Virus record (IMG/VR): IMGVR_UViG_3300009184_000006
Span: 1 to 55,553 of that record
DNA: 55,553 nt
Source of the DNA: a virus
Lineage: Duplodnaviria > Caudoviricetes
Strand: one strand, 5' to 3'
Position numbers and translations under genes: made by a program
Shown: positions 6,047 to 29,572 of the stretch, piece by piece
How positions within the stretch are numbered: the first letter of the stretch is position 1
How the letters are laid out: the number at the start of each line of letters is the position of its first letter
The notes under the pieces: generated by a model
The model's input: only the letters and a program-made list of their open reading frames with translations
What the model was told of the DNA's origin: nothing
Databases searched by the model: none

Positions 6047-7048
6047 TCAGCTCCTGTTGGCGTTTAAGCGGTCATATTCAGCGTATTTTTTGATCATCTT
6101 GTTGCGTTCGGCCATATTATCCCACCGACCCGCATCCTTGATGGCTCGCACACGCTCTGGAGACAGACGGAACTCGTTCGGTCTTAACGAATTACTAGAT
6201 TCCCGTCCAGATCCTGTAACCACTTGCCTTGGTCTCCGATTTTGAGCAGATGACTGATCGTCATTTCCGCCATTATAACGGTGAGGCAGGTATTTTGTCA
6301 ATCTATTGTCCAACTCCGACCAGTAATCGGGGGTGTTGGGATCCCAGCCTTCCTCGACGAGACTTTCATCGATTTTAACCGCGACACGGCTGTCGGTATC
6401 CTTCCCATTCGGGTCGTACCAATCATTTCGCGCCATCCAGTCACCGGCCAGACGCTTCAAGCGCGGGTCCGGCGCTTTTGGGACTGCTGGAGTGTTAGGT
6501 GCCGCCACGGCACGCTTTTTGAGCGCTTCGAGGGATTCGACCTGTCGTCGGGCATCGTACCAAGCTTCCTGGGCATCAGCCAAACCCGCGCCATCGGCCA
6601 TTTCGGTCGCCTCTTTGATCTTCATCTTGGCGTATTGCAGCCGTACATGACCATCTTCGATCGCCTTGTCCAGCCGTGCCACATCGGCACCCGCCGTGCG
6701 TTTTTCCAGCACCGCCAGCCGTTCGGTCATCTGCTCGTTCTGGCGCTGCAGAGTGGTGATCAGATGGTTCGATTCGGCGGTTCGAGCCTTGTGGAGCTTT
6801 TTCTTGAGATTCCGCTCTTCACGCCGCGCCAGCCGGATGGCCTCTCGCTGCGGATCAGGGTCCGGAGTATTGTCTACCCCACCACTGGAATCATCATCGT
6901 GGTCATCGTCTGTATCCGCCGAATTTTTCTGCGAATCCGTTTCGGCATTACTGCCATTGTCTGGAGCTTCTCCGGGTGGCAGCAACACCGTCGCTGACCC
7001 ATCTGAACCCTCCGACATTTGCAATTCTAATTTATCGACCGTGTTCAT
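6047..7048 (-). CDS. Putative scaffolding protein
   Basis: Acidic N-terminus, coiled coil, W..RN.WY motif, C-terminal LSPERV..IK; position in the head module. Confidence 0.7.
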   Translation of the reverse strand: MNTVDKLELQMSEGSDGSATVLLPPGEAPDNGSNAETDSQKNSADTDDDHDDDSSGGVDNTPDPDPQREAIRLARREERNLKKKLHKARTAESNHLITTLQRQNEQMTERLAVLEKRTAGADVARLDKAIEDGHVRLQYAKMKIKEATEMADGAGLADAQEAWYDARRQVESLEALKKRAVAAPNTPAVPKAPDPRLKRLAGDWMARNDWYDPNGKDTDSRVAVKIDESLVEEGWDPNTPDYWSELDNRLTKYLPHRYNGGNDDQSSAQNRRPRQVVTGSGRESSNSLRPNEFRLSPERVRAIKDAGRWDNMAERNKMIKKYAEYDRLNANRS

Positions 7049-15420: not shown

Positions 15421-15479
15421 GTGTCCTCTATCGGTTGGTTGAAAAGCCCAATTATACCACGGCTGGGGCTATTTGTCAA
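15421..15479 (-). promoter_or_regulatory. Early promoter cassette: sigma70 promoter + conserved leader/RBS
   Basis: TTGACA-17-TATAAT; leader CAACCAACCGATAGAGGAC. Confidence 0.9.
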
Positions 15480-15494
15480 GTATTACGAAAGTAT

Positions 15495-15707
15495 TCATCC
15501 GCCCAAATGTTCGTCGACGAAGGTCTCCAGCGCCCGGAGGGCGAGCCAGTGGTCCACCCGGGAGCCGTCCGCTGCCTGATCGGCAAAGGTGGCGTCGACC
15601 TTTTGCGGGGAGACGTTGGCCACGAACTGGATCCGTTGACCGTTGAGCAGCATTTCGCCGGACAAGGTGGCCGAAGCCACCCGGACCGCAGCGCGGACTT
15701 TATGCAT
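15495..15707 (-). CDS. Small hypothetical early protein
   Basis: 70 aa; AAGGA RBS; coupled to upstream gene. Confidence 0.6.
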   Translation of the reverse strand: MHKVRAAVRVASATLSGEMLLNGQRIQFVANVSPQKVDATFADQAADGSRVDHWLALRALETFVDEHLGG

Positions 15708-16212
15708 TTGCGGTTTCCTTCAAAGCTTTGCGAAGCATGTTGCCGAGATTCATGCGTTGCATGCCGACATTGAGGTGACCAAAGCGCTCGCGCAGACCGG
15801 CTTGCGAGATGCCGGTGGCTTTCGACACGTGGGCCACCACCTGCTCCAGCGTCATCGGACGCAGAGCCAGCGCCACGGCGTCGCCCTTGTCGATCGAGCG
15901 TTTCACGTCGCCGGACTTGGTCACGGTGCTGTACGACACGTATTGGGGCAGGTAGCCGCTGTACACGACGCCATTTTTGCGATCTTCGATCGGCAGCTTC
16001 GAGCGGGGAGCCTTGGCGCTCTCGGTGCTCTGCTCGGCCTTGGCAATGTAGGCGCGGGTGATGGGCGCGTCGACGACGGTGTGGCCCGACAGCTCGCCGT
16101 TGCGCAGCTTGATCTGCTTCGTATTGCCGATAACACGGGCTGTGGTCCAGCCGCCGTTTTTAGCGATGATTTCGACTTGCTGGCTGGTTTTGGTGATGAT
16201 TGCTACGTTCAT
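15700..16212 (-). CDS. Hypothetical early protein with C-terminal NxGxxxMxLxNxLR motif
   Basis: Start follows the promoter/leader at 16218-16275. Confidence 0.7.
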   Translation of the reverse strand: MNVAIITKTSQQVEIIAKNGGWTTARVIGNTKQIKLRNGELSGHTVVDAPITRAYIAKAEQSTESAKAPRSKLPIEDRKNGVVYSGYLPQYVSYSTVTKSGDVKRSIDKGDAVALALRPMTLEQVVAHVSKATGISQAGLRERFGHLNVGMQRMNLGNMLRKALKETANA

Positions 16213-16217
16213 GGTGA

Positions 16218-16275
16218 TGTCCTCTATTGGTTGGTTGAAAAGCTTAATTATAACACGGGTGGAACAGTTTGTCAA
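16218..16275 (-). promoter_or_regulatory. Early promoter cassette
   Basis: TTGACA-17-TATAAT; the spacer contains TGTTCCA; conserved leader. Confidence 0.9.
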
Positions 16276-16289
16276 GTATACCGAAGGTA

Positions 16290-16541
16290 TTACTCGCAGT
16301 GGTGGTGTACGACACGTGCGGCGTTGCGAATGACTTCGCCGTTCATGTCGAAAGCGCGATCGAAACCCCAGCCCTCAGCGACCAAGGTCTCGAGCACGGC
16401 TTCCAAATCCGTTTGGCCGCAGCCACCGTTCATCACGCTGTCGCCGGTGGCGAGGTCGTAAATCGTGGCTGTACGACCGGCGTTGCCGAATCCGGCGCAT
16501 GCGCTGAACTCGATGCTGTAGCTGGCTGGGAGTGCTTTCAT
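16290..16541 (-). CDS. Small hypothetical early protein
   Basis: 83 aa behind its own promoter. Confidence 0.7.
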   Translation of the reverse strand: MKALPASYSIEFSACAGFGNAGRTATIYDLATGDSVMNGGCGQTDLEAVLETLVAEGWGFDRAFDMNGEVIRNAARVVHHHCE

Positions 16542-16545
16542 TCGT

Positions 16546-16604
16546 TGTCCTCTATCGGTTGGTTGAAAAGTCTAATTATACCACGGGGGCAATACCTTTG
16601 TCAA
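16546..16604 (-). promoter_or_regulatory. Early promoter cassette
   Basis: TTGACA-18-TATAAT + conserved leader. Confidence 0.85.
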
Positions 16605-16607
16605 GTA

Positions 16608-16889
16608 TTACAGCCGTATTACAAAGATCCCGGACGGATCTTGCGCGGTGTCGACGTACTCTTGCACGCCGGGGGTCCACTCGGCATCGGGCCAATAGAC
16701 CACGTAGCCCATGCCCAGATGGTCCACGCGACACCCCTCTTTCGGCAAGCCCTCTAGGTCGCTGCCCCGCTCGATAGTGCAAGCGACGCACGATTTGCCG
16801 TACATGAAGCGGCCAGAATAGGACCACGGCTGCAGCTCGCGATTGAGAATCGCGTCGACCAAATCCATCGTTGTGTTCAGAATCATCAT
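16608..16889 (-). CDS. Small hypothetical early protein
   Basis: YSGRFMYGKSC...DHLGMGYVVYWP; ATGA coupling. Confidence 0.65.
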   Translation of the reverse strand: MMILNTTMDLVDAILNRELQPWSYSGRFMYGKSCVACTIERGSDLEGLPKEGCRVDHLGMGYVVYWPDAEWTPGVQEYVDTAQDPSGIFVIRL

Positions 16890-17131
16890 GGAAAAGCCCT
16901 CATTTCTTCGAGTTGACGAACATTTTTGCGAATTTGCATTTGTCGATCGCGGATCGCGTCGATTTCGCACCACACCTTGCGCACGTACTCGCTCGATGCG
17001 AGTTCGTGCTCGTGGATGCGCAGCACCTCGTAGCAGTCCTGCAATGCGCACTGCAAGCCGTAGGTGTCGGACTGGGCGAATTTACGGCGAAAGACCGCCG
17101 CAAGGTCTTGGTAGGAGATCGTGCGATTCAT
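16886..17131 (-). CDS. Small hypothetical early protein
   Basis: 81 aa; ATGA coupling; GGAG RBS. Confidence 0.65.
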   Translation of the reverse strand: MNRTISYQDLAAVFRRKFAQSDTYGLQCALQDCYEVLRIHEHELASSEYVRKVWCEIDAIRDRQMQIRKNVRQLEEMRAFP

Positions 17132-17391
17132 ACGCGCTCCACGGTGCCGACCAGTTGGCCATCAGCGATTTCGAACAGCACGTGCTTTGCGATGTTCAGA
17201 GTCTTGCGTGCACGCTCGGTGTCGCCCATGGCCAGCAGCTCTTGCGCGTCGGACATCAACCCGGCCACCACCATGTGGCCACCGGAGCATTTGTAAGTGA
17301 TCGAGTCGGTCAGATCGCGAATGTACTGGTCGATGTCTTCGACGCCGTACATGCTCATGTTGCAAACGATTTGTGTTCTGGTCAGTGCCAT
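17128..17391 (-). CDS. Small hypothetical early protein
   Basis: 87 aa behind a promoter cassette. Confidence 0.7.
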   Translation of the reverse strand: MALTRTQIVCNMSMYGVEDIDQYIRDLTDSITYKCSGGHMVVAGLMSDAQELLAMGDTERARKTLNIAKHVLFEIADGQLVGTVERV

Positions 17392-17397
17392 GGTGCT

Positions 17398-17455
17398 TGT
17401 CCTCTATCGGTTGGTTGAAAAGCCCAATTATAACACGCGTGGGACAATCTGTCAA
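17398..17455 (-). promoter_or_regulatory. Early promoter cassette
   Basis: TTGACA-17-TATAAT + conserved leader. Confidence 0.9.
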
Positions 17456-18207
17456 GTACCCCCCTCCAAGAACCGATCGATCTCCTGCGACAGCGAGTGC
17501 ATGCCGCTGTTGACGAGCTTGACCACCGGGACCACCGCACGCACCCGGTCCTGCGCTGCATGGCTTATGAACTTGGTCATGAGAAAAGCCGCGTCGACTT
17601 TCGGTATAGCCCTAGATTTCGCCTCGTCCGCTGTGTAAAACAGCAGGACCACATTCTGCTTTCGGTACTGGGTCGCGACCATGCTGGCTTGGCTATCCAG
17701 CAACCCCACGACCAGAATGTAGGGACGCGGCTTTTTGCACGAATCGGGCAACCAGCCACCATCGATCGACGCACGCCGGAACTCGGCATTTCGCTTGGCG
17801 TATTCCGCGTCGAACTGGTCGTCCACATCTTTGTACACTTGTGCACGCAGCCGAGCCTCGACTTTGTCGAGCACTTGCTCCACGAGCCGATCCACGAGAG
17901 CGGCGAAAAGTACGCCTATATCGGTATCGTTTCGCAATTGCGGGGGTGGCGCGGGTTCGGTAGCCACAGGTGCCGGTTTGGGCAGATTCTTCACCCGGGC
18001 TTTAGCAATGGTTCTCGCCTCCGCGATTCGCGCTTTGTAGGTGTGCACGCGTTGGTCGGTGATTTTCACACGACGATCTTTCACCAGCACATTCTGCGCG
18101 TGGTGCATCGCGGTGCGGTTGGTGGTGAGCGGCTGCTCGATAAACACATCGATCATCGATGCAAACACGGCAGTCTTTTCTTCGTTCGTCCAAACGGTTC
18201 GGGTCAT
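17452..18207 (-). CDS. Hypothetical protein, possibly DNA-binding
   Basis: 251 aa; ATAGAGGAC RBS; N-terminal WTNEEK; C-terminal alpha/beta domain with TKFISH. Confidence 0.65.
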   Translation of the reverse strand: MTRTVWTNEEKTAVFASMIDVFIEQPLTTNRTAMHHAQNVLVKDRRVKITDQRVHTYKARIAEARTIAKARVKNLPKPAPVATEPAPPPQLRNDTDIGVLFAALVDRLVEQVLDKVEARLRAQVYKDVDDQFDAEYAKRNAEFRRASIDGGWLPDSCKKPRPYILVVGLLDSQASMVATQYRKQNVVLLFYTADEAKSRAIPKVDAAFLMTKFISHAAQDRVRAVVPVVKLVNSGMHSLSQEIDRFLEGGT

Positions 18208-18226
18208 GGCTTTTGTCCTCTATGCT

Positions 18227-18257
18227 AAAAAAAGGGGAGACCATCGCTGGCCCCCCC
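18227..18257 (-). terminator. Intrinsic terminator
   Basis: GGGGGCCA...TGGTCTCCCC + T7. Confidence 0.65.
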
Positions 18258-18297
18258 GAACTCTTGGCAACTGCAGCATTTCGCCGCAGCCCCCCTA

Positions 18298-19275
18298 TTA
18301 TACCAGCGACAATGCGGTGTCCAGTGCGTCGCGTTTGAGGCGTGCACCGGCACCAAACCAAGCGGACTGCAAGCGGGTGTCCCGCGAGGTTGCACCACGC
18401 TCGTGGTCGGCGAACCGGGTGACTGCGTTGAGCAAGCCCCATGCGGTGCCGGTCGCGGTCTTGGTGCGTTGGCCCACACCGTCGAGGTAGATCTTGGTCA
18501 CCAGCTCGATCATCGGGCGCTTAGCCTTGGGGTCGATCTCCTCCTCTTCGCCGTAGAACACGTCGAGGAAGTACTTCGCGGCTTCCTCTTTCGACACCTT
18601 GCGCTTGCTCAGCGTCGTGGCGTTCGACTTGAACTGGTCCCAGGCTCCCCCGACTAGACCCAGCTCGGTCTTGAATCGCACCGGGTTGAACTGCGTGCTG
18701 TGCGGTACCCGGATCTGGCCCGATTTGTTGCCCACGGCAACGGACAGCGTGTTGTTGCACACGACGCGGGTGGTCGTGAACTGTGCGCTGTTGGACAATG
18801 TGCCATCGCACGAGGTAGCGAGCAGCAGATAAGGCAGGACCACGTCGCCGCCACCCACGTCGAACGAGTCATCAGCCTTGGCCAACGCCCAGTAAGTCGC
18901 GCCATTGCGCAGCATCCCAGCGGTCTCCATCTTGAAGCCGCCCACCTCGCACAAGTCGCGAAAGAACTCCATCACGTCGCGGGGTTGAGTGATGTGGTAG
19001 TTGCTCGACATCACCGAAAGGGGAGCACCTGTATCGCTCCGGTACAACGCCCAGCGCTTGGGTACGGTCTGCATGCGCACCGGTGCGTCGTTCTCGTCGC
19101 GCACCTCGTAGGCGATCGCGCCCTTTTTCACGGTCCAGTCGAACCCGGCTTCGCGGGTCCAAGTATCGAGATTCGCATCGGGGGTCAGCACCTGACCTAA
19201 ACCGTGCCACGGGGTCTCGCCGACGTAGGCCATGGATGCTTTACCGGCAGCGTTTGTGTGTAGTTCGTGAGCCAT
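18298..19275 (-). CDS. DUF932-family (phage/plasmid TIGR03299-like) protein
   Basis: MAYVGETPWHGLG, ETAG.LR.G, TSCDGT, RVVCNNT, GTAWGLLNAVT. Confidence 0.85.
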   Translation of the reverse strand: MAHELHTNAAGKASMAYVGETPWHGLGQVLTPDANLDTWTREAGFDWTVKKGAIAYEVRDENDAPVRMQTVPKRWALYRSDTGAPLSVMSSNYHITQPRDVMEFFRDLCEVGGFKMETAGMLRNGATYWALAKADDSFDVGGGDVVLPYLLLATSCDGTLSNSAQFTTTRVVCNNTLSVAVGNKSGQIRVPHSTQFNPVRFKTELGLVGGAWDQFKSNATTLSKRKVSKEEAAKYFLDVFYGEEEEIDPKAKRPMIELVTKIYLDGVGQRTKTATGTAWGLLNAVTRFADHERGATSRDTRLQSAWFGAGARLKRDALDTALSLV

Positions 19276-19282
19276 TGTGTAG

Positions 19283-19340
19283 TCCTCTATTCGTTGGTTG
19301 ATGAAGATGCTATTATAACACGCGTGGGACAATCTGTCAA
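19283..19340 (-). promoter_or_regulatory. Early promoter cassette
   Basis: TTGACA-17-TATAAT; spacer identical to that of the 17398-17455 promoter. Confidence 0.9.
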
Positions 19341-19351
19341 GTATTGTCCGA

Positions 19352-19546
19352 TCAATCCAGCGTTTCCCAAGTCTCGCCTTGGTGTCCGCATTCGTAGCAG
19401 AACCAGCCCATCTTGGCCCACGAAAGGTCCAAGCGGGGGTCCGACTTTTGAGCCAGTATCCGCACCTGCATGTCGCTTCGACACACGGGGCACGTTTGCT
19501 CGGTCTCTTCGGATTCCTCGGGTTCGTCTATGTCGTCTTCTGTCAT
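19352..19546 (-). CDS. Small Zn-ribbon protein
   Basis: CPVC...CYEC. Confidence 0.6.
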   Translation of the reverse strand: MTEDDIDEPEESEETEQTCPVCRSDMQVRILAQKSDPRLDLSWAKMGWFCYECGHQGETWETLD

Positions 19547-19555
19547 GGTCTGCCC

Positions 19556-19756
19556 TTAGTCTGTTTCGCCAGTCGATTCATCCAGCACGTCGTAGGGCGG
19601 GAGGAAGGCCACATCGGCCAACTGGCGTATGTTGCGAAATCGAGCCTCTTGCTCGGTAAGCAGCTTTCGAAAGTGGTCGTTCTCTTTGACCAGCCTTCGA
19701 ATGTCTTCGAGTGCGTCGCCCAGTGCAAGGTCGAGGATTCGTTCTTCATCGGTCAT
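19556..19756 (-). CDS. Small coiled-coil protein
   Basis: GGAGA RBS; ATGA coupling. Confidence 0.55.
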   Translation of the reverse strand: MTDEERILDLALGDALEDIRRLVKENDHFRKLLTEQEARFRNIRQLADVAFLPPYDVLDESTGETD

Positions 19757-19857
19757 CCCGGTCTCCAAAGTAAAAAGTCGAGCGCCAGCACGATGAGTGC
19801 GGCGAGGATTACTACGCGTTCAACGGTTTGCAGCAGTGTGTGGTTGAAAGGGCGCAT
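19753..19857 (-). CDS. 34-aa single-TM membrane protein (not in ORF track)
   Basis: MRPFNHTLLQTVERVVILAALIVLALDFLLWRPG; coupled on both sides. Confidence 0.6.
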   Translation of the reverse strand: MRPFNHTLLQTVERVVILAALIVLALDFLLWRPG

Positions 19858-20156
19858 TACAGGATCTCCATTTGGCGAATGTTCATCTTTTCGACGCTGT
19901 TCATGTGCTCTTTGCACCACTCTTCGCCCAGTGTGGCACGGGCTGCTGCGGAGTCCAAGCGCTGCTCGTTCGTGAACTTCACTTCGAGCTGGTAGGCCTT
20001 GCCTTTGTACACCATGTCCTGCCCTGCGCAGTCCTCGCGCAGCGCTTCTTTCAGTAACTTCTCGCGTGCGGTCAGTGCACGCAACTGGTCACGCACTTGG
20101 GCCAATTCGTCGATCATCGCGGTGGTGATCGTGGCGCGGGTTTTGGTCTTGCTCAT
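19857..20156 (-). CDS. Hypothetical early protein
   Basis: 99 aa behind a promoter cassette. Confidence 0.7.
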   Translation of the reverse strand: MSKTKTRATITTAMIDELAQVRDQLRALTAREKLLKEALREDCAGQDMVYKGKAYQLEVKFTNEQRLDSAAARATLGEEWCKEHMNSVEKMNIRQMEIL

Positions 20157-20158
20157 AT

Positions 20159-20218
20159 TGTCCTCTATCGGTTGGTTGTGGAAGGCCTTATTATACCACG
20201 GGTGGAATCATGTGTCAA
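20159..20218 (-). promoter_or_regulatory. Early promoter cassette
   Basis: TTGACA-17-TATAAT + conserved leader. Confidence 0.9.
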
Positions 20219-20483
20219 GTATCCTCTCGGCACTGATCTGGGCATACCCGGCTATATCGACCCACGAATCCCGGTTCTCCGGGTTGCCGTTTAGAATCCG
20301 CGACACTTTGTGCATGATCATGTCGAGCGATTCCTTCTGGTGCGATTTCAGCCGCTTCCATCCGTCTTGCTCGCGCATGTACTCTTTCAGATCTTGTGCG
20401 ATGATCCCTTGATGTGTGAAATCGCCGTACTCGGCCCCCCGCTCATCAGTGATCGCTTGTAGGTTAACTTTCAAGTGCTGCAA
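20208..20483 (-). CDS. DUF6378-like protein
   Basis: ERG..YGDF...LDMIMHKVSRILNG.P...DSWVDIAGYA. Confidence 0.75.
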   Translation of the reverse strand: MQHLKVNLQAITDERGAEYGDFTHQGIIAQDLKEYMREQDGWKRLKSHQKESLDMIMHKVSRILNGNPENRDSWVDIAGYAQISAERILDT

Positions 20484-21618
20484 CTAGTCCCCCTTTTCTA
20501 TACCGTCCTTTGATCGCATCGCTGGCCCCGGGCAATTCGAGCAGCTTGCGAGCTACGTCCTCCGGGTCTATACCGCGCTCCATACCGCTTATAAACGCCT
20601 CGGTGGAACCCGCACGCCCAAGAAGACCCGGGCCAAATGCCCTTGCCGGTCCCATGGTGCTGTAGGGCTGCGTCCCCTCTTGCCGTGCTCGCGTGGCGTA
20701 CCACTTGAGTGCGTCTAAATCCATCGGGTTGGCAAGATCGAAAATGCTCTCGTTCGCCAGCCCCTCGGGTCCATGCGCCCGGGCCAGCTGGGCCTCTCGT
20801 AGCGCCAGCAGTCCGGTCTGGGCTTGTGGCGAAAAGCGCAGCGTGTCGCGAGCCGAGGTGTTGATCGCGGTGTCGTACCGATTGCCCGGGCCAAGCAGCG
20901 ATTTCAACGCCTCTTCTTCTGCGTCGCCTCGTTTACCGCCATACATGGGCATGAACGGAAAAGGGTCGCCGCCGCCACCTTGGAACAGGGGTAAAAGGCC
21001 GTAGTCGCCGTGGGCGAGACCGGAGGACATCACGTTGCCGGGTCTGCGCAGCTGGTTGATGTTGGTCAAAATGTCGACGGAGTTTAGGTGGTTCCCAGCT
21101 CGCAATGCGTCGAACATCATAGCATAGGCCGATTTGCCTATACCCTCCGGCATCCCGACGGTCGTCAATCCATAGGGCGAGGGCTTACCACCAAACCACC
21201 CACTTTTTTGGTTCGCGTGCATCAACGTTTCCATCGGGTTACCGGCCAAGTCCGATGTGCTCCTCGCGGTGAAACCTAAATATTCCCCCGGTTCGTATGC
21301 ACCTGTGGGGTCTTCGAACACGATTTTTCCGCTCTCGGGCAAGTGCCCTTTGTCCATCGCCCTCTTGGCAGTGGTGGGGTGGCCCTCGGGAATCACCCGG
21401 GGCTTGAGTCTTTCGCCTTTAGGGTTTACAAGGTAGCCTTTGTCAAAGAATCGTTCTAGCACCTCCAATTCCAGCTCATTGGGTCTGAGTACACGCTCAG
21501 CGTTAGGAATCCGAGCCGCTTTAGGAGCCATTTGCATTACCTTATGGCCTCGTCCTATACCCTCGGCTAGATCATGAAACGAGTACCCGGCGGGGATTTT
21601 TTTAGGTGCTGGTGGCAT
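20464..21618 (-). CDS. Orphan 384-aa protein ending in YRKGGLV motif
   Basis: Long ORF overlapping both neighbours; no family recognised. Confidence 0.7.
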   Translation of the reverse strand: MPPAPKKIPAGYSFHDLAEGIGRGHKVMQMAPKAARIPNAERVLRPNELELEVLERFFDKGYLVNPKGERLKPRVIPEGHPTTAKRAMDKGHLPESGKIVFEDPTGAYEPGEYLGFTARSTSDLAGNPMETLMHANQKSGWFGGKPSPYGLTTVGMPEGIGKSAYAMMFDALRAGNHLNSVDILTNINQLRRPGNVMSSGLAHGDYGLLPLFQGGGGDPFPFMPMYGGKRGDAEEEALKSLLGPGNRYDTAINTSARDTLRFSPQAQTGLLALREAQLARAHGPEGLANESIFDLANPMDLDALKWYATRARQEGTQPYSTMGPARAFGPGLLGRAGSTEAFISGMERGIDPEDVARKLLELPGASDAIKGRYRKGGLVAALES

Positions 21619-22438
21619 AATAAACCTTGTCGGACATTTGGAGGGTGTTGAGGTGGATGTCTATCGTCTTTTGCATCGGGTCCGCGTAGCCGCCAGCAAG
21701 ATTCCACACTAGAGGGATCCCCGCTGCTTTTGCCGCTTCGAACATACCGCTGTCCCTCCGCATAAGACCCTTGACGGATAGATAACCGACGCCGTACGGG
21801 TCTTGGTCCCATGCGTCAGCACCAGCCTGATACATTATTATACCCGGCTTGTGGTCCTTGAGCAAGTCCTCGAAGTACGATTTCCACTTCGCAGTGCTAG
21901 CCCCGGCGAAGCGAAGCTTCCCGAAGTTATCGCGGGTGATGTGGGGCACCTGATCGCGCAGCCCCAAAAGCTCGATAATGTTGTCGGTTCCGTCCCCGTA
22001 GTGACCATCGCCGTCGACGATCATCACGCGCTGGATGTCGTACCGCTCCAGTAGGTGCACAGCGGCGACCATCAGCCCGTTGAACGTGCAGTACCCGTAG
22101 CAGTGGTCCCAGTGTGCGTGGTGAAAGCCCTGCGATGCGGAGCACGCCACACCGCCATTCTCCACGACATGGACTGCGGCGGCGAGGAAAGAGCCATTCG
22201 ACGCGAGCAGCGACCGGTTGATCTCGGGGTTGCGATTGCCGAACCCATTCTCGGTGACGCCGTCCATCACGGAGCGCACGAACTTCGGATCGTGAGCCAC
22301 TGCAATCTGGTCCACGGTCAGCGGCGTGGGAATGTGGTACTTGCGGTCCGACTGGCGCACGAATTCGGGGATCTTCTTGGTCGAGATCCAGTCGAATACG
22401 ACGTCTTGGTCCGGATGGTAGAACAGTGGTGTTGCCAT
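21602..22438 (-). CDS. Zn-dependent histone deacetylase/acetylpolyamine amidohydrolase-family enzyme
   Basis: GFHHAH, GYCTFN, VDGDGHYGDGT, YQAGAD....DP and AGGY all present. Confidence 0.9.
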   Translation of the reverse strand: MATPLFYHPDQDVVFDWISTKKIPEFVRQSDRKYHIPTPLTVDQIAVAHDPKFVRSVMDGVTENGFGNRNPEINRSLLASNGSFLAAAVHVVENGGVACSASQGFHHAHWDHCYGYCTFNGLMVAAVHLLERYDIQRVMIVDGDGHYGDGTDNIIELLGLRDQVPHITRDNFGKLRFAGASTAKWKSYFEDLLKDHKPGIIMYQAGADAWDQDPYGVGYLSVKGLMRRDSGMFEAAKAAGIPLVWNLAGGYADPMQKTIDIHLNTLQMSDKVYYATST

Positions 22439-22444
22439 GGTGTG

Positions 22445-22501
22445 TGCCCTCTATATGTTGATGAATCCCCGATTATACCACACGTCCTATACCTCTGTCA
22501 A
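22445..22501 (-). promoter_or_regulatory. Sigma70 promoter for the deacetylase operon
   Basis: TTGACA-18-TATAAT; ATAGAGGG RBS. Confidence 0.8.
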
Positions 22502-22692
22502 TCCTCGCTATCCCGCACCCGACGCTCCCGCTCGTCCAGCTCCGGGCGTTCCCCGGTCTCGGGCTTCTCCCGGGTAGTGAACCGAAATCCGCATTTCTCG
22601 ACCAAGCACTCGCGTCGACGCTTTGTAGTCAGGTCCACGTTTTGGTAGGTAGTCGTCACCCGTGTGTCGCTACCGCATTGCAAGCATTTCAT
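22498..22692 (-). CDS. Stand-alone NrdR-like N-terminal Zn-ribbon protein (no ATP-cone)
   Basis: MKCLQCGSDTRV...KRRRECLVEKCGFRFTTRE; GGAGG RBS; ATGA overlap with the datZ stop. Confidence 0.75.
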   Translation of the reverse strand: MKCLQCGSDTRVTTTYQNVDLTTKRRRECLVEKCGFRFTTREKPETGERPELDERERRVRDSED

Positions 22693-23252
22693 AACCATCC
22701 TCCATGTATTCCTATATCTTGGCATACTCGACGTACGCCCTCGCGCACCCCAAGCTTGGGGTACTCCCGTTCCATGCTGGTGACCATACCAGCAAGGATT
22801 TGCCGCAGCTCGTCGAGCACCTGCTTGGCATGTGCCCCTATACCGTTGTCCTGCAAGAAGTAGATCGCCTCGATCTGGTCCGCCAGCTTCACCAGCATTT
22901 CGATCTCGCTCCCTTTCACCTGCCGGTACGCCCCCATGTGCTCCCGGTCCACCAGATCTTCGGCCTTCTCCAGCACGCCAGCACCCCCGGCCTCTTCGAG
23001 GAAGCGCTTGAACGGTGTCGGCACGTCCCCGGTGCGCACTTCGATCAGGTCGTGGGAAAGGGACCATTGCAGCAGCTTTAGCTGTAGTGTGTGGTGCAGC
23101 AGTCCCGTCCAGCGCATCGCAGTGGCGAGCGATCCGGCGATCACCGCAACCGCGAATGAATGCTCCGCTAGCGTCTGCTCCCGGGCCACCTGCACTATAT
23201 GCCACCGGCGTACATGGCACGCCCTCAATTGTTCAGCCGTCGTTAAACTCAT
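22689..23252 (-). CDS. datZ: HD-domain dATP triphosphohydrolase DatZ
   Basis: VRRWHIV...QTLAEHSF...HDLIE.RTGD...VKLAD; lies in the purZ cluster. Confidence 0.85.
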   Translation of the reverse strand: MSLTTAEQLRACHVRRWHIVQVAREQTLAEHSFAVAVIAGSLATAMRWTGLLHHTLQLKLLQWSLSHDLIEVRTGDVPTPFKRFLEEAGGAGVLEKAEDLVDREHMGAYRQVKGSEIEMLVKLADQIEAIYFLQDNGIGAHAKQVLDELRQILAGMVTSMEREYPKLGVREGVRRVCQDIGIHGGWL

Positions 23253-23871: not shown

Positions 23872-24072
23872 TCATCGCTCTTTCATCCTTCGCAACTTAT
23901 CGGCGATCTGCTCGCCGTCCAATGCGTCGAACTCTTCGATTTCTAGCTTCTTAGCGGCCCGTTCCAGCACGCCGTTCCAGATCTTCTTCACAGCTTGCCG
24001 GTTGTCCTCGTCTTGCGAACCAAGCACGTTGCCGAAGGTCTGCTCGTACCATTCATCGAATGCTTTAGACAT
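23872..24072 (-). CDS. Small hypothetical protein
   Basis: 66 aa (AFDEWY...) ending RMKER. Confidence 0.6.
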   Translation of the reverse strand: MSKAFDEWYEQTFGNVLGSQDEDNRQAVKKIWNGVLERAAKKLEIEEFDALDGEQIADKLRRMKER

Positions 24073-24559
24073 GGCGCATGATCCCAGTGTTTTCGTCCAC
24101 CCGCCACTGACGCGATTCGTTGATATCCATCTTCATCTCGATGGCCCGGTGTACATCTATACCGTTCTTGTACGCCACGTCAAGCAGCAGGATCATGATG
24201 TCGCCCATTTCTAGCGCCGATTGTGGGTCACGACAGTACTCACCAATTTCCTCGTAGAGCTTGAGTAGAATATCCTTCGTCGTGCGCTCAGGAAAGTTAG
24301 CGTCAGCCCATTGCGTGATCCGATCTTGTAACTGACGTATATCGGCCCCGCCCCGCTTCTTGTAAGCGTTGATTGAACGAACTGCGAGATCTGCGTTTTT
24401 GTCGCAGTTGCCGAGCACGCCCCGTAGATGGTGACGGACCTCGAAAGACGCGACGGCAGCGCCTTTCGCATCGACGACGATGGCGGGGTTTTGTGGGTCG
24501 ATCCCCCACGGGAGTTCATTGGTTTCATCCGTGTGTATCTCTGATTCAACTTGCAGCAT
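24065..24559 (-). CDS. mazZ: MazG-like (d)GTP pyrophosphohydrolase MazZ (DUF550) with an N-terminal extension
   Basis: QWADANFP...EEIGE...EMGD...KMDIN..RQW; directly downstream of purZ. Confidence 0.85.
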   Translation of the reverse strand: MLQVESEIHTDETNELPWGIDPQNPAIVVDAKGAAVASFEVRHHLRGVLGNCDKNADLAVRSINAYKKRGGADIRQLQDRITQWADANFPERTTKDILLKLYEEIGEYCRDPQSALEMGDIMILLLDVAYKNGIDVHRAIEMKMDINESRQWRVDENTGIMRHV

Positions 24560-25655
24560 GGCGTTGGGCCTTCCAAATGTTAATGATCTGGTTCATCCGT
24601 AGTGCTCGCGCCCCACGATCGATAACGTGCACGTCGTTGTAGGTCGGCCCGGTGCCGATCCAGCGCACAATGGCTTGGTCGCTCTCGATCGCTTGCACTA
24701 TCGAGACCAGCTCTCGCTCTTCGCGCACATAATTGACGAAATTGAGGAACACTTCGCGTGCACCATTGTACTCGATCGATTCTTGGATCTGCTTCCCACT
24801 GAATGTGAAAATCCGGCGTGGCAGCTTGGTCACGGTGGTAAGCTCCGTCTTTTGCCCTATATCCTCGAAGCTGATCTCCACTTGGTCGTCGTAGCACGGC
24901 CCGGAGTACCCCACTTGCATTCCCTCGGTGTCGTATCGGTTCGCCACCCGGATCGGGTAGGTACGGCAAGTGCCAATCACCTGCAGCCGGGTGTTCTGGT
25001 ACTTGTCCACCAGCATATCGTACGAGATCCCGGCATCGGCGAGGATTTGCCACGTGCTCACGTCCCTCGACGTGGTGTAGGGGTAGAACCCGTGGTACAT
25101 CGAGAGTCCGTATCCTTGCGCCCCCTCGATCAGCACGTGCCGAGCTTCGCGCAGCGCGGCCCGGTAGCCCATCGTGGTGGTCACGTACCGCGCAAGCTCC
25201 GAGCAGTTGGCCGCGATGTTTAGATCGTCCGGGTTGCGCCGAATGCGCTGAATCATCGCAGCACCAACGCCCTTTTTGGTGGAACCGATCTTGGTCATCG
25301 GTCCGGCTTCCTCGTCCACGTGCCGCTGGGTGACGATCGCGGCGTGGGGGTGGATTAGTATTTCGATGAACTGCGTGAGCGCCTTGCTCGCCTCGATCTC
25401 TTCCAGCAGTTGATGCGGGTTGATGAGCGACCCGGGTCCAAGCAGCACGCGCTTGAGGTAGGGGGAGACGATGCCGTTGGCCAAATGCGTGTGGATGTAT
25501 TTGCGCCCTTGACTGCTGATGTAGGTGTGCCCCGCGTTGGGTGCCCACGCCGTGATCACCGTGTCGGGTGATTCCTCCTCCGCTAAGTACCCCACGATCA
25601 GCCCCTTGCCGGTGCTACCGTACTGCAGATCCACTACCATCTTGATTGTTTCCAT
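24546..25655 (-). CDS. purZ: N6-succino-2-amino-2'-deoxyadenylate synthase PurZ
   Basis: PurA fold with GSTGKG (PurA has GDEGKG), PNAGHT, EGAQG, TTVTKLPRR, LNFVNY. Confidence 0.93.
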   Translation of the reverse strand: METIKMVVDLQYGSTGKGLIVGYLAEEESPDTVITAWAPNAGHTYISSQGRKYIHTHLANGIVSPYLKRVLLGPGSLINPHQLLEEIEASKALTQFIEILIHPHAAIVTQRHVDEEAGPMTKIGSTKKGVGAAMIQRIRRNPDDLNIAANCSELARYVTTTMGYRAALREARHVLIEGAQGYGLSMYHGFYPYTTSRDVSTWQILADAGISYDMLVDKYQNTRLQVIGTCRTYPIRVANRYDTEGMQVGYSGPCYDDQVEISFEDIGQKTELTTVTKLPRRIFTFSGKQIQESIEYNGAREVFLNFVNYVREERELVSIVQAIESDQAIVRWIGTGPTYNDVHVIDRGARALRMNQIINIWKAQRHAAS

Positions 25656-25657
25656 GT

Positions 25658-27493
25658 TTATCCTTTTGCTGCGTACCAGTCTTTGCCCAAACCCCAATCG
25701 CAGCGAATCGGGACTCGGAGTTTAATCGGACACTCGACGCCGTCGAATGTAGTATAGAGTCGGGCGATCTCCTCGGCTTCGTGCTTCGAATCGTTATCTA
25801 GTGATATCCCTACCTCGTCGTGCACGGTCAGCAGCAGCCGACCACATTGGCGCTCGCGCAGATGGCGGTGCAGCTCGATGAGTTTTAGCTTCATGCAGTC
25901 CGCACTGGTGGCTTGGTAAATAAGCCCCGACGCCTTGTGCACGAACTGACCACCGGGGAAGCGGATGTGCCGCCCCATCACTGAATGCACGAATCCACGC
26001 TCTTTCGCAATGCCGCTGGCCTTCATCGAGGTGTTGCGCATTCCGGGGTTCGCAGCGTGGTACTTCTCGAACAACGCCATCGCCTCGGGTCCAGCCTTGA
26101 GGTAGACGTTGCCATTCGGCCCCTCCTCCTCGGTGTAAGGCAGTCCACATTCCTGCGCCAGCCGTCCGGACCCCATGTTAAACGCAAGTCCGAGGTTAAT
26201 CGCTTTGGAGCTTGGGCCACCCGCATACTGCGCATTTCGCGGAATCCCGGTCATGTCACTCACCAGTTGGTGGAAATCCAAGTCCGGATTCTCCTCGTAG
26301 GCCTTGAGAATCGCGGGAACCTGACCGTAATGATTAGCCACTCGGAATTCAAATTGTGACCAATCCAGACCCAGCCACTCAGCCCCCAAATCGGCTTGGA
26401 AAATCGGACGAACCAATGACTTAATGGCGACGTCTCGACTTGGAATCTGCTGCAGAGCGGGATTAGTAATCGATAGCCGTCCAGTCCCTGTACCAGCCTC
26501 GGCATCATTTTTGGTCTGGTTATAATTGCAATGAATGATTCCATCGTGCTGGTGTCCCAGTATGTGGCCCTTGAGGAAGGTATCGCGGGTCTTGAGTGCC
26601 TTTCGCAGGTCGAGGATCATCGCCGCCGCTGGGTGCTTCATACGACGCAGACAGTCAGCGTCGATCGACGCCTTACCGCCGTCGGTCTTTCCGGCCTTGG
26701 TCCCGTCGATCAGATACCACTCATTGTCCTCGCGTAGCGTGGGCTTGAATAGATCCGCGATCGATCCGGAGGGGTTCGGGTTGACCTCGAAACCGGCGAG
26801 GCTATTAAGACCCCGCTGCATCTCGTCGATGCGCTTCGTGAGGCCATGGACGGCCCTCTCGGCCTGTTCCACATCCACCGCCACACCCTGCTCCTCCATG
26901 TCGATGATCACCGGCATTAGATCGCGTTCCAGCCGCAGCACTTGGTGCAAGTCTTGCCGCTCGATTTCTCCTTGCTGCCAGTTGTACAGCGCCAGCGTGA
27001 CCACCGCGTCTTGGATCGCGTACTTGGACACCACGTGCTCCGGTGCTCGGGAAATGTTAGGCATCTGCATGTTGCGGGTAGGGCGACCGCCGAACAGCTT
27101 CGCCAGCTCCTCGTACATCTCCTCGTCCTTTTTCATGCCGACATACTTGCGAGCCAAGAAATCCAGCGCGTAGGTCGGTTCGTGCTCGTTAATGAGCGCT
27201 GCCCGGATCATCGTGCAGTCGATCTGGTCCGTAGGTACTGCCACCCCGGCTTCGCGCAGGAAGTGCACGTCGAACTTCATGTTGTGCCCCACCCACGTAC
27301 CCACCCGCTTTTCGCGGATCAGGTCGTTGAGCCACCCGATCACCCCGGGAGATGTGCGGATGTCCCAGTACCCGGAGAACTCGGGGAGTGCGATGGAAAT
27401 GCCGAATGCTCGGTCCTCCCACCACTTCAACCCCGTAGTCTCGGTATCTATGACCAACACCGGGGCGTGGTCGATTCGTGGAAATGCGATCAT
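25658..27493 (-). CDS. dpoZ: Family A DNA polymerase with 3'-5' exonuclease, DpoZ-type
   Basis: DTETTG, HNMKFD, TGRLS, DWSQFEFR, KAINLGLAF, VHDE; adjacent to purZ; TGATG start coupling. Confidence 0.88.
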   Translation of the reverse strand: MIAFPRIDHAPVLVIDTETTGLKWWEDRAFGISIALPEFSGYWDIRTSPGVIGWLNDLIREKRVGTWVGHNMKFDVHFLREAGVAVPTDQIDCTMIRAALINEHEPTYALDFLARKYVGMKKDEEMYEELAKLFGGRPTRNMQMPNISRAPEHVVSKYAIQDAVVTLALYNWQQGEIERQDLHQVLRLERDLMPVIIDMEEQGVAVDVEQAERAVHGLTKRIDEMQRGLNSLAGFEVNPNPSGSIADLFKPTLREDNEWYLIDGTKAGKTDGGKASIDADCLRRMKHPAAAMILDLRKALKTRDTFLKGHILGHQHDGIIHCNYNQTKNDAEAGTGTGRLSITNPALQQIPSRDVAIKSLVRPIFQADLGAEWLGLDWSQFEFRVANHYGQVPAILKAYEENPDLDFHQLVSDMTGIPRNAQYAGGPSSKAINLGLAFNMGSGRLAQECGLPYTEEEGPNGNVYLKAGPEAMALFEKYHAANPGMRNTSMKASGIAKERGFVHSVMGRHIRFPGGQFVHKASGLIYQATSADCMKLKLIELHRHLRERQCGRLLLTVHDEVGISLDNDSKHEAEEIARLYTTFDGVECPIKLRVPIRCDWGLGKDWYAAKG

Positions 27494-27759
27494 CAGAACG
27501 GGATGTCGTCGAAGTCGTCGCGGAACCCGGTGGGTGCTGGTCGAACCGTGCCCCCGGCGCTCTGCTCTTTGCGGTTGATCTTGATGGAGAAGTACTTCTT
27601 GCCCTCCATCTTGCCCCCCGCTTTGCCCTCGTTCACCCACGCCGATACCCAATAGTCCACGCCCTCCACGTTGAGTGAGCCAGTGAACTCGGGGTGATTC
27701 TCGGTCTTGCGATTCTCGTTCCGGGCAATCATGCCGGAATTGGTGTTGTCGTATGCCAT
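27493..27759 (-). CDS. Small SSB-like protein with acidic DDIPF tail
   Basis: 88 aa; HPEFTGSLNVEG.DYWVSAW...DDFDDIPF. Confidence 0.7.
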   Translation of the reverse strand: MAYDNTNSGMIARNENRKTENHPEFTGSLNVEGVDYWVSAWVNEGKAGGKMEGKKYFSIKINRKEQSAGGTVRPAPTGFRDDFDDIPF

Positions 27760-27768
27760 CTAGGTTCC

Positions 27769-27827
27769 GTCCTCTATCAGTTGGTTAATGAAGCGGCCAT
27801 TATATCACCGCTGGAATGATCCGTCAA
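27769..27827 (-). promoter_or_regulatory. Sigma70 promoter + leader upstream of the ssb-like/dpoZ/purZ operon
   Basis: TTGACG-17-TATAAT; leader AACCAACTGATAGAGGAC. Confidence 0.8.
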
Positions 27828-29243: not shown

Positions 29244-29572
29244 TACCCCCTCCAAGTAACAGCGCGTACCGCCCACATACTCGCGGTCTCCACGTCGGTG
29301 ATCGCAACGGATAGCGCTCGCTGCACATCCGCATCGTGGTATGAATCACGCAGCGTTTTGAGGTAGGTGACCATGTCGTCAGTCTTCGCCTTGATCGTCG
29401 CCACGCGCCGCGCTTCGTCCTCGTTCAGCGTGGGGTAGGCTGTGAAAGGTACTGCTTTGGGCTGCTCAGCGGGTTTTATCGGGACAGCGACCTGGGGTTC
29501 GGACACTACCATTTGCTCAGCCACTGGTGCTCGACCGAATGCCTCGTCTTTGGGGTCTTTTTTCGTTGCCAT
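29243..29572 (-). CDS. Acb2/Tad1-like putative cyclic-nucleotide sponge protein
   Basis: Y..L..DE......IK...RALSVAITDVETASMWAVRAV helical hairpin. Confidence 0.6.
   Translation of the reverse strand: MATKKDPKDEAFGRAPVAEQMVVSEPQVAVPIKPAEQPKAVPFTAYPTLNEDEARRVATIKAKTDDMVTYLKTLRDSYHDADVQRALSVAITDVETASMWAVRAVTWRG

Follow-up and report, generated by a model that had tools for sequence, protein, structure and literature searches.

A compact class IV-like histone deacetylase homologue and its probable GNAT-like partner in a lineage of PurZ-encoding phages

The IMG/VR virus record IMGVR_UViG_3300009184_000006 (Duplodnaviria; Caudoviricetes), analysed here over its full 55,553 bp and referred to as the window, is complete and has direct terminal repeats of 123 bp and a GC content of 55.3%. 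On its minus strand, downstream of genes for 2-aminoadenine (Z) synthesis, lies an open reading frame (ORF) for a 278-residue protein of the histone deacetylase (HDAC) family, followed by an overlapping gene for a 384-residue protein, here called the partner. The overlapping partner, probably GNAT-like, is new here, being absent from the first-pass annotation of this DNA. The HDAC gene and the unit that it heads comprise the following features:

22472..22501, minus strand: sigma-70 consensus promoter, TTGACA-18-TATAAT, with TG before the -10 box (TTGACA-18-TGgTATAAT; 12/12 hexamer matches)
22439..22471, minus strand: short leader with an AGAGGG Shine-Dalgarno sequence (of the type ~TTCAaCAAC..ATAGAGGaCA), common to six other presumably early cassettes
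21602..22438, minus strand: predicted Zn-dependent deacylase of the HDAC family, compact and apparently class IV-like, 278 residues (PF00850, E 1.4e-32)
20464..21618, minus strand: 384-residue partner with a probable GNAT-like domain (about residues 50-220) and a helical C-terminal half (AlphaFold2 model, GNAT-fold matches)
20208..20483, minus strand: DUF6378 protein, 91 residues, the last gene before the next presumably early promoter (PF19905, E 4.5e-11)

The HDAC ORF matched the Pfam family Hist_deacetyl with 113.6 bits, against a curated cut-off of 27.9, and PF00850 was above the cut-off in a genome-wide search as well; no PHROG family and no PADLOC model (the latter at E <= 0.001) was found for it. 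Its translation contains the motifs GFHHAH, YGYCTFN, IVDGDGHYGDG, YQAGAD and LAGGY, and the earlier description of an intact HDAC-family enzyme of 278 residues is thereby upheld for every motif that it named. Residues H106, H107, D144, H146, D208 and Y251 correspond, in the alignment to 9GKV, to the catalytic residues of HdaH from Vibrio cholerae (VcHdaH) and, together with D142, G249 and G250, are invariant in a 40-member family alignment. YQAGAD and D-x-D-x-H are kept in all 51 non-identical orthologues from the phage clade described below, nine of which differ solely in the residue preceding D-x-D-x-H. The AlphaFold2 model is of high confidence (pLDDT 96.5, pTM 0.94) and was matched by 461 PDB chains in Foldseek at E <= 0.001, the matches listed all being HDAC-family enzymes with the arginase/deacetylase alpha-beta fold and the best of them reaching TM scores of 0.82-0.84. 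The compact family to which the protein belongs, of about 270-300 residues, comprises 271 representative clusters at E <= 1e-30. Judged by its sequence, the ORF encodes a real, conserved and probably active enzyme. Such a compact zinc amidohydrolase would hydrolyse an N-acyl amide by the standard HDAC mechanism, with Zn2+ held by Asp144, His146 and Asp208, water activated by the His106-His107 dyad, and the oxyanion stabilised by Tyr251.

The promoter of this gene is among eight perfect sigma-70 sites in the window, all of them on the minus strand, compared to none in 100 shuffles, and the earlier claim that the gene has a consensus promoter of its own was borne out. The region from 15451 to 22501 (minus strand) contains seven of them, in tandem cassettes in which a promoter of the form TTGACA-17/18-TGnTATAAT precedes a common leader (~30 nt, ~TTTTCAACCAACCGATAGAGGACA) and then a Shine-Dalgarno sequence with its ATG; the eighth, at 6272-6301, has no such leader. 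Most of the seven cassettes drive small ORFs without a Pfam family. Since the HDAC gene shares this promoter-leader-ATG layout, its start codon is confirmed, and the gene stands first in the tandem series. The ATG of the partner is situated 17 nt inside the HDAC ORF, and almost every locus of the clade has the two genes overlapping or abutting. As the next promoter is found after the DUF6378 gene, at 20190-20218, the unit consists of the HDAC, the 384-residue protein and DUF6378, the last of which is probably the third gene of the operon. From their sequences, the consensus-promoter cassettes would be read early by the host RNA polymerase. Contigs of 151-192 nt (depth 2-3.6) from two metatranscriptome runs covered parts of the partner, DatZ and zinc-ribbon genes and none covered the HDAC ORF; they carry no strand or start information, may stem from DNA carry-over, and were counted neither for nor against transcription.

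Upstream of the unit, the following features were identified:

22498..22698, minus strand: zinc-ribbon protein, 66 residues (NrdR N-terminal match, weaker Ogr-Delta match; PF22811, E 3e-07)
22689..23252, minus strand: DatZ-like HD-domain dATP triphosphohydrolase (YfbR-like/HD Pfam; phrog_7076, E 4.3e-28)
24065..24559, minus strand: MazZ-like dATP/dGTP pyrophosphohydrolase (PF04447, E 6.5e-09)
24546..25697, minus strand: PurZ, the adenylosuccinate-synthetase homologue of the 2-aminoadenine pathway (phrog_1211, E 6.4e-88)
25658..27652, minus strand: family A DNA polymerase with a 3'-5' exonuclease domain (Pfam)
27799..27827, minus strand: near-consensus promoter (11/12) 5' of the SSB-PolA-PurZ unit (promoter scan)

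The order DatZ, zinc ribbon, HDAC agrees with the earlier placement of the HDAC gene two genes downstream of datZ. The PurZ of the window is, among the matches listed, 45-49% identical to PurZ of Acinetobacter, Salmonella, Vibrio phiVC8 and S-2L phage records, and with PurZ, MazZ, DatZ and the family A polymerase all located upstream, a Z genome is very probable for this phage. The zinc-ribbon ORF overlaps the end of the DatZ gene, is present in all syntenic loci and may encode a transcription factor.

In two scans of IMG/VR, 67 distinct loci were found with an HDAC 45-97% identical to that of the window. The partner lies directly downstream of the HDAC gene in all 67 of these syntenic loci, and PurZ is visible in 47, the other 20 contigs ending before its expected place. 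The order PolA-PurZ-MazZ-DatZ-zinc ribbon-HDAC-partner is invariable in the clade, with a DUF932 gene coming next wherever the contig reaches that far. An independent scan with DatZ returned 26 close relatives, and every contig carrying one had already been obtained with the HDAC; hence no clade member without the HDAC was seen in the sample. Ratios of nonsynonymous to synonymous substitution rates (dN/dS) of 0.12-0.25 against five orthologues place the HDAC gene under purifying selection in the clade. The 120 best HDAC matches listed from a wide protein search were at least 50% identical, 252-323 residues long and situated on contigs of up to about 58 kb. Freshwater and lake metagenomes of several studies contain nearly identical DNA, and the whole stretch is spanned by a 33.9-kb contig of a lake metagenome that belongs to a different study.

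The relationships of the HDAC were analysed in a tree of 115 rows (quick method, midpoint root, support from the Shimodaira-Hasegawa-like approximate likelihood-ratio test (SH-aLRT); rows with 90% or more identity to a retained row were removed beforehand). In this, 26 Z-phage rows and five bacterial rows group together at 100% SH-aLRT support, on a long stem of 0.98. The bacterial rows comprise four Burkholderiales (two Comamonadaceae, one Burkholderiaceae, one Sphaerotilaceae) and a member of Chloroflexota; their loci are chromosomal or island-like, and among the neighbors are genes of the VWA and MerR types as well as FAD oxidoreductases, one AbiEii toxin and one transposase. An exchange of the HDAC gene with Burkholderiales hosts, in either direction, is likely from these sequences. 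The nesting of the bacterial subclade (Comamonadaceae and others) with phage sequences at full support also fits a recent host-gene capture that is carried along without any adaptive role, as it indicates that host exchange occurred. Against such a passenger stand, however, the 67 syntenic loci spread over 45-97% identity, the low dN/dS, catalytic residues retained in 51 of 51 orthologues and the dedicated consensus promoter, and we find it hardly credible. For the same reasons of synteny and purifying selection, the gene is not the sporadic recent capture, lacking a phage clade, that the first-pass annotation had named as the outcome that would speak against its proposal. In the five sister bacterial loci (L035-L039), a VWA-domain protein and a 325-392-residue MerR-HTH protein are encoded by a conserved divergent pair of genes; a 229-residue protein of no family is found downstream in three of them, the AbiEii toxin gene lies nearby in L036, and the transposase adjoins another of the sister loci.

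The earlier proposal was that the HDAC may belong to an accessory arm of Z-genome biology, to be checked by its co-occurrence with purZ in viral genomes. This co-occurrence turned out to be limited to one clade. With a PurZ homologue at E <= 1e-30 as the criterion, 62 GenBank phage records matched, and none of the 60 listed had an HDAC-like match, while 10 phage records were HDAC-positive. Since none of these PurZ records carries an HDAC, Z genomes do not need one. The same compact family also occurs in unrelated phages, with 13 other viral rows in the tree for which well-supported branches demand no fewer than three separate placements, and in bacteria. In a second phage lineage, with some contigs of 240-260 kb, the HDAC gene directly follows the tail sheath and tail tube genes, and no MazZ or DatZ match was found in its HDAC loci. 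A PurA homologue is located 6-9 kb away in four (L150, L156, L157, L161) of the second-lineage loci L150, L152, L154-L157, L160 and L161. This lineage was considered as a link between the HDAC and Z synthesis and rejected, the PurA homologue having the canonical GDEGKGK motif and a Pfam E-value of 4.6e-134.

A function tied to the Z genome could take the form of a GNAT-like protein acylating, and the HDAC deacylating, the exocyclic amine of 2-aminoadenine, or of an HDAC reversing host acylation of Z. In phage Mu, the N6 of adenine in DNA is modified by Mom, an enzyme with the GNAT fold. The proximity of DatZ and HDAC is strict in 67 of 67 clade loci, both units have sigma-70-type promoters, and the window scan gave no terminator-like site between the zinc-ribbon gene and the HDAC gene. 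The HDAC nevertheless has its own promoter, its family resides in non-PurZ phages and bacteria and is missing from the PurZ records listed, and the second lineage combines it with tail genes and a PurA-type enzyme; moreover, we know of no intermediate of the 2-aminoadenine pathway that is an amide. A role of this kind is consequently very improbable. The HDAC is neither a step of 2-aminoadenine synthesis nor part of the Z toolkit, and its adjacency to DatZ is a lineage-specific synteny across separate promoter units. Among titles and abstract openings, no account of an HDAC in PurZ phages was found, the polyamine study PMC9992855 aside; supplementary lists outside that scope may hold some. For Z biology the outcome is thus mostly negative and still useful, in that the gene should not be counted with the 2-aminoadenine toolkit.

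The class of the enzyme was assigned from the nearest solved structures, the tree holding no reference HDAC classes. By sequence, the closest solved relative was VcHdaH (9GKV, E 5.1e-26), followed by an HDAC11 of clade A from Chlamydomonas (9RJE, E 2.6e-20) and one of clade B from Leptospira (9GZ5, E 3e-13); weaker matches were obtained to an acetylpolyamine amidohydrolase (APAH; 3Q9B, E 9.2e-07) and to several entries of HDAC8 (E ~4e-06). By structure, the top five chains were VcHdaH (TM 0.82-0.84) and the Leptospira HDAC11 (9GZ5, TM 0.82), APAH and HDAC10 ranking 32nd or lower. Neither E-values nor structural rank places the protein close to the acetylpolyamine amidohydrolases (cluster 4) or HDAC10, and on both sequence and model the phage enzyme appears class IV-like, i.e. 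of the HDAC11 and VcHdaH type, rather than AcuC- or APAH-like.

Graf et al. 2024 (PMC11532494) describe VcHdaH as a selective lysine de-decanoylase of bacterial cluster 5b, and the RPP foot-pocket motif of class I enzymes as being replaced by xGG(F/Y)HH motifs (SGGYHH or GGGFHH) in cluster 5 enzymes and HDAC11. RPP is likewise absent from the phage protein, which has SQGFHH, and from the wider family, which has TSGFHH, with Gln or Ser taking the place of the middle Gly. For HDAC11, Novakova et al. 2026 (PMC13325672) distinguish a clade B, with a Glu at the L2 rim (human Glu94) that helps to bind peptide backbones, HPFD in L1, a Phe gatekeeper and activity on fatty-acylated peptides, from a clade A in which the rim residue is Gly, the Pro of L1 is replaced by Arg and the gatekeeper is Thr. 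According to that paper, clade A enzymes cleaved no tested peptide and held hexanoate in the pocket, and non-peptidic substrates are proposed for them. With positions mapped by eye on printed alignments, the phage protein combines a rim Gly in L2 (NGFGN) with a Phe gatekeeper and lacks HPFD, its L1 segment being ISTKKIP compared to SPSAGKP in the cellular family. It departs from clade B by its rim Gly and the lack of HPFD while matching it in the gatekeeper Phe, and from clade A by that same Phe (GFHH, against GTHH in 9RJE) and a different L1 while matching it in the Gly. As far as the sequence tells, the enzyme thus mixes signatures of both clades and fits neither cleanly. An acyl chain longer than acetyl is a possible substrate by these motifs, and the substrate as such does not seem to be readable from homology.

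These features also bear on whether the enzyme is an auxiliary metabolic deacylase of small molecules, freeing polyamines for packaging or translation, or hydrolyzing some other N-acyl amine of the host (e.g. acyl-homoserine lactones, N-acyl amino acids or ornithine lipids), with the GNAT-like partner either unrelated or acting on the same pool. The rim Gly is shared with the clade A enzymes for which non-peptidic substrates were proposed (PMC13325672), a foot-pocket motif resembling the class IV type would suit acyl chains longer than acetyl (PMC11532494), and PMC9992855 reports proven N-acetylspermidine amidohydrolases in giant viruses and spermidine acetyltransferases in phages. The viral APAHs in that source are however restricted to Imitervirales and are homologues of Mycoplana APAH, and the phage protein is by its E-values far nearer to class IV than to APAH. 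Being class IV-like rather than APAH- or AcuC-like makes the polyamine reading somewhat less likely. Neither the Pfam tallies of 35 ORFs nor the remaining genome scans turned up another polyamine gene, and no specific evidence for a quorum-signal or lipid substrate was found. Overall, a small-molecule deacylase is a possibility that we regard as doubtful.

For the partner, an AlphaFold2 model was built from a 27-member alignment (pLDDT 85.2, pTM 0.87). No Pfam, PHROG or PADLOC family (PADLOC at E <= 0.001) was found for the protein itself; LPD37 matched 3 of the 27 members with a best E-value of 0.013, too weak to use. Searching the ESM Atlas gave a best score of 0.80 to viral hypothetical clusters, i.e. 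chance level. Foldseek returned no match at E <= 0.001 (best E 0.46), and its weak top rows were GNAT folds, namely the C-terminal domain of ICL2, GNA1, FeeM, Eis and TacT. VIA-align, which is independent of Foldseek, gave GNA1 at Z 6.0 (124 residues aligned), HAT1 at Z 5.7 and 5.5 and Rv1916 at Z 4.8, values that by the warning of the tool can be chance, as all are under 8. By title, about 40 of the 50 rows listed are acetyl- or acyltransferases of the GNAT/HAT type, aligned to model residues ~50-220. The residues invariant in the partner family (G161, Y165, D170, L184, T185, N188, R191, R192 and N195) map to a strand-loop-helix and the following helix of the model, and in GNATs those elements bind the CoA cofactor. 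Of motif A (Q/R-x-x-G-x-G/A), the second Gly alone is invariant. Taken from the model, the domain is probably GNAT-like.

As far as the searches reach, the partner seems confined to this phage clade. When all ORFs of the fetched loci were scanned with a hidden Markov model of its family, every member detected belonged to the Z-phage loci, and a search of 5.8 billion proteins gave 23 strong homologues, none of them on a contig longer than 58 kb. The partner diverges far more quickly than the HDAC does, with identities of 25-43% across most of the clade compared to 50-60%. The C-terminal tail of the partner (20464-20490), R-Y-x-K-G-G-L-(A/V)-A, is near-invariant, with Y373, G376 and G377 invariant, although the tail is disordered in the model (pLDDT < 50). 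A complex prediction for HDAC and partner scored 0.00, which gives no answer and speaks neither for nor against binding.

Taken together, the unit could be a lineage-specific early module for host manipulation or counter-defence, formed by a class IV-type deacylase and its GNAT-like partner, a reading that has the best support of those considered and that we judge evenly balanced between right and wrong. Transcribed early by the host RNA polymerase from the sigma-70 promoter, the unit would first yield the HDAC, then a protein with a domain of the acyl-CoA acyltransferase type, and third DUF6378. An acyl 'eraser' would thus be made possibly to work with an acyl 'writer', as a module for takeover or counter-defence acting soon after infection on acyl-lysines of host or phage proteins, or on some other acylated amine, the chain maybe being longer than acetyl. 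With respect to the substrate taken by itself, we tentatively put protein acyl-lysine in first place, at somewhat short of even chances, whereas small acylated amines are a weaker candidate, the product of a host acyltransferase immunity is improbable and a Z-related substrate very improbable; the remaining share goes to other compounds.

Several points weigh against this module. Activity, substrate and timing are predictions from sequences and models, and the GNAT assignment depends on a predicted structure with Z not above 6.0. None of the 27 members of the partner family matched a Pfam acetyltransferase family, and a PDB profile search with the partner gave nothing relevant, a designed helical repeat at E 0.93 being the sole match. 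In hhalign, the comparison with 20 bacterial GNATs reached a probability of 0.3%; its single local alignment does fall on the strand-GxG-helix (the G-I-G-K loop) that is the counterpart of GNAT motif A. The Gly at the L2 rim, as in the peptide-inactive clade A, argues for a substrate other than protein; VcHdaH, which is active on peptides (PMC11532494), also aligns a Gly at that position in the printed alignment. As neither HDAC nor partner has a PADLOC model, no known defence or anti-defence family is involved. Finally, encoding eraser and writer together could be futile if both had the same target.

Further hints come from the genes around the cellular relatives and from the rest of the phage genome. 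Apart from an antisense ORF artefact, no single conserved neighbor was common to more than 8 of 80 cellular loci. A WYL/WCX regulator, with two clusters taken together, was nevertheless found within 5 kb of the HDAC in 12 of the 80 (L039, L046, L050, L053, L055, L059, L060, L071, L078, L088, L104, L113), and a Cas4-like/DUF2779 nuclease within the same distance in eight (L041, L055, L057, L060, L077, L086, L091, L106). Five of those genomes hold 10 WYL domains in 26.9 Mb, i.e. ~1 per 2.7 Mb, at which rate about 0.3 WYL neighbors would be expected in 80 loci, compared to the 12 observed; in the genome of L071, one of the two WYL genes lies ~1 kb from the HDAC. WYL regulators control defence systems and DNA-damage responses. 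These neighborhoods hint that the cellular compact HDACs belong to responses of the defence or damage type, and suggest a WYL-controlled module in bacteria that includes a deacylase. Two further features of the window are relevant here or complete the clade neighborhood:

29246..29572, minus strand: Acb2/Tad1 hairpin-domain protein, 109 residues, just upstream of a UvrD-like helicase (Pfam, E 5e-13)
18298..19332, minus strand: DUF932 protein, kept downstream in the clade (E 9.6e-58)

The former probably acts as a sponge for cyclic oligonucleotides that counters CBASS or Thoeris, and proteins of this type are a known kind of counter-defence. The genome also encodes a primase domain of the AEP-TOTE type, an SNF2 helicase, and structural genes of the Pam3-like and SU10-adaptor kinds.

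A more specific form of counter-defence would have the HDAC erase an immune or toxin mark set by a host acyltransferase (GNAT toxins etc.), with the partner as a decoy or inhibitor. The location of the unit among consensus-promoter cassettes in a genome with an Acb2/Tad1-type sponge, a partner that diverges as fast as many anti-defence proteins do, and cellular relatives next to WYL regulators, Cas4-like nucleases and AbiEii are all in line with this. However, the analysis did not identify a target among known defence systems with an acyltransferase effector, neither protein is covered by a PADLOC model, and invariant residues at the GNAT cofactor site fit an enzyme better than a decoy. We therefore deem this version improbable. 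A broader idea is that compact HDACs are a component of phage-host conflict: a WYL-controlled bacterial deacylase, induced by infection or damage and encoded beside Cas4-like nucleases, would have been captured by this phage lineage and joined in an early operon to a new GNAT-fold partner, the two together acting as an acyl writer and eraser that rewrites or pre-empts the host response. This, too, is unlikely, if slightly less so.

HDAC-type enzymes are among the best-studied eukaryotic regulators, while their bacterial and viral relatives are mostly uncharacterized and the natural substrates of class IV are an open question. The lineage described here offers a small, well-folded and strongly conserved viral HDAC with a fixed partner gene and a defined promoter, a minimal system from which the bacterial substrates of class IV enzymes could be learned, and the WYL link of the cellular family is a second, independent route to the same question. 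The main values of the locus are thus the operon of an eraser and a putative writer and the WYL-linked cellular family, which make the bacterial class IV substrate question testable. Should a viral acylation/deacylation module prove true, reversible acylation would join the means by which phages take over or disarm their hosts, including a counter-defence by reversible acylation not yet described for phages.

In comparison with known systems, HDAC-like proteins were already present in other phages, i.e. gp202 of Rhodococcus phage E3 (a 'putative histone deacetylase') and the uncultured huge phages LR756501-LR756511. These are 23-35% identical to, and thus distant from, the window protein, and none is from a PurZ phage. 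To our knowledge, the other phage HDAC-like genes are uncharacterized, and no functional study of a phage HDAC was found, as judged on titles and abstract openings. The APAHs of giant viruses, according to Li et al. 2023 (PMC9992855), belong to the same superfamily, are virus-encoded and have proven deacetylase activity. They differ in being of the cluster 4 type and in occurring in Imitervirales, and the phage protein matches APAH ~19 orders of magnitude more weakly than it does class IV. With the HDAC11 or class IV clades A and B (9RJE, 9RJD, 9GZ5) it has the fold and the catalytic core in common, the phage family being separate and compact.

In its gene arrangement, the unit with its putative writer resembles AcuA/AcuC of Bacillus subtilis, in which an HDAC-family eraser is paired in an operon with a GNAT-fold protein. 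AcuA, a GNAT acetyltransferase, and AcuC, an HDAC-type deacetylase, are encoded in one operon and regulate acetyl-CoA synthetase. In contrast to the phage HDAC, AcuC is class I-like (cluster 2), the partner has no detectable homology to AcuA, and no acyl-CoA synthetase target is evident in the phage; AcuC and AcsA are both mentioned in PMC11532494. The closest resemblance is to VcHdaH (9GKV/9GKY), with which the phage protein shares ~25% identity, the same Zn ligands, the His-His dyad and the GGY tyrosine. In place of RPP, VcHdaH has a motif of the xGG(F/Y)HH type and the phage protein one that resembles it, and the alignment puts a Gly at both L2 rims. The phage protein is ~30-40 residues shorter and has SQGFHH instead of SGGYHH. 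Furthermore, while the phage enzyme is known here from its sequence, and sits in an operon with a GNAT-like protein, VcHdaH has a measured de-decanoylase activity.

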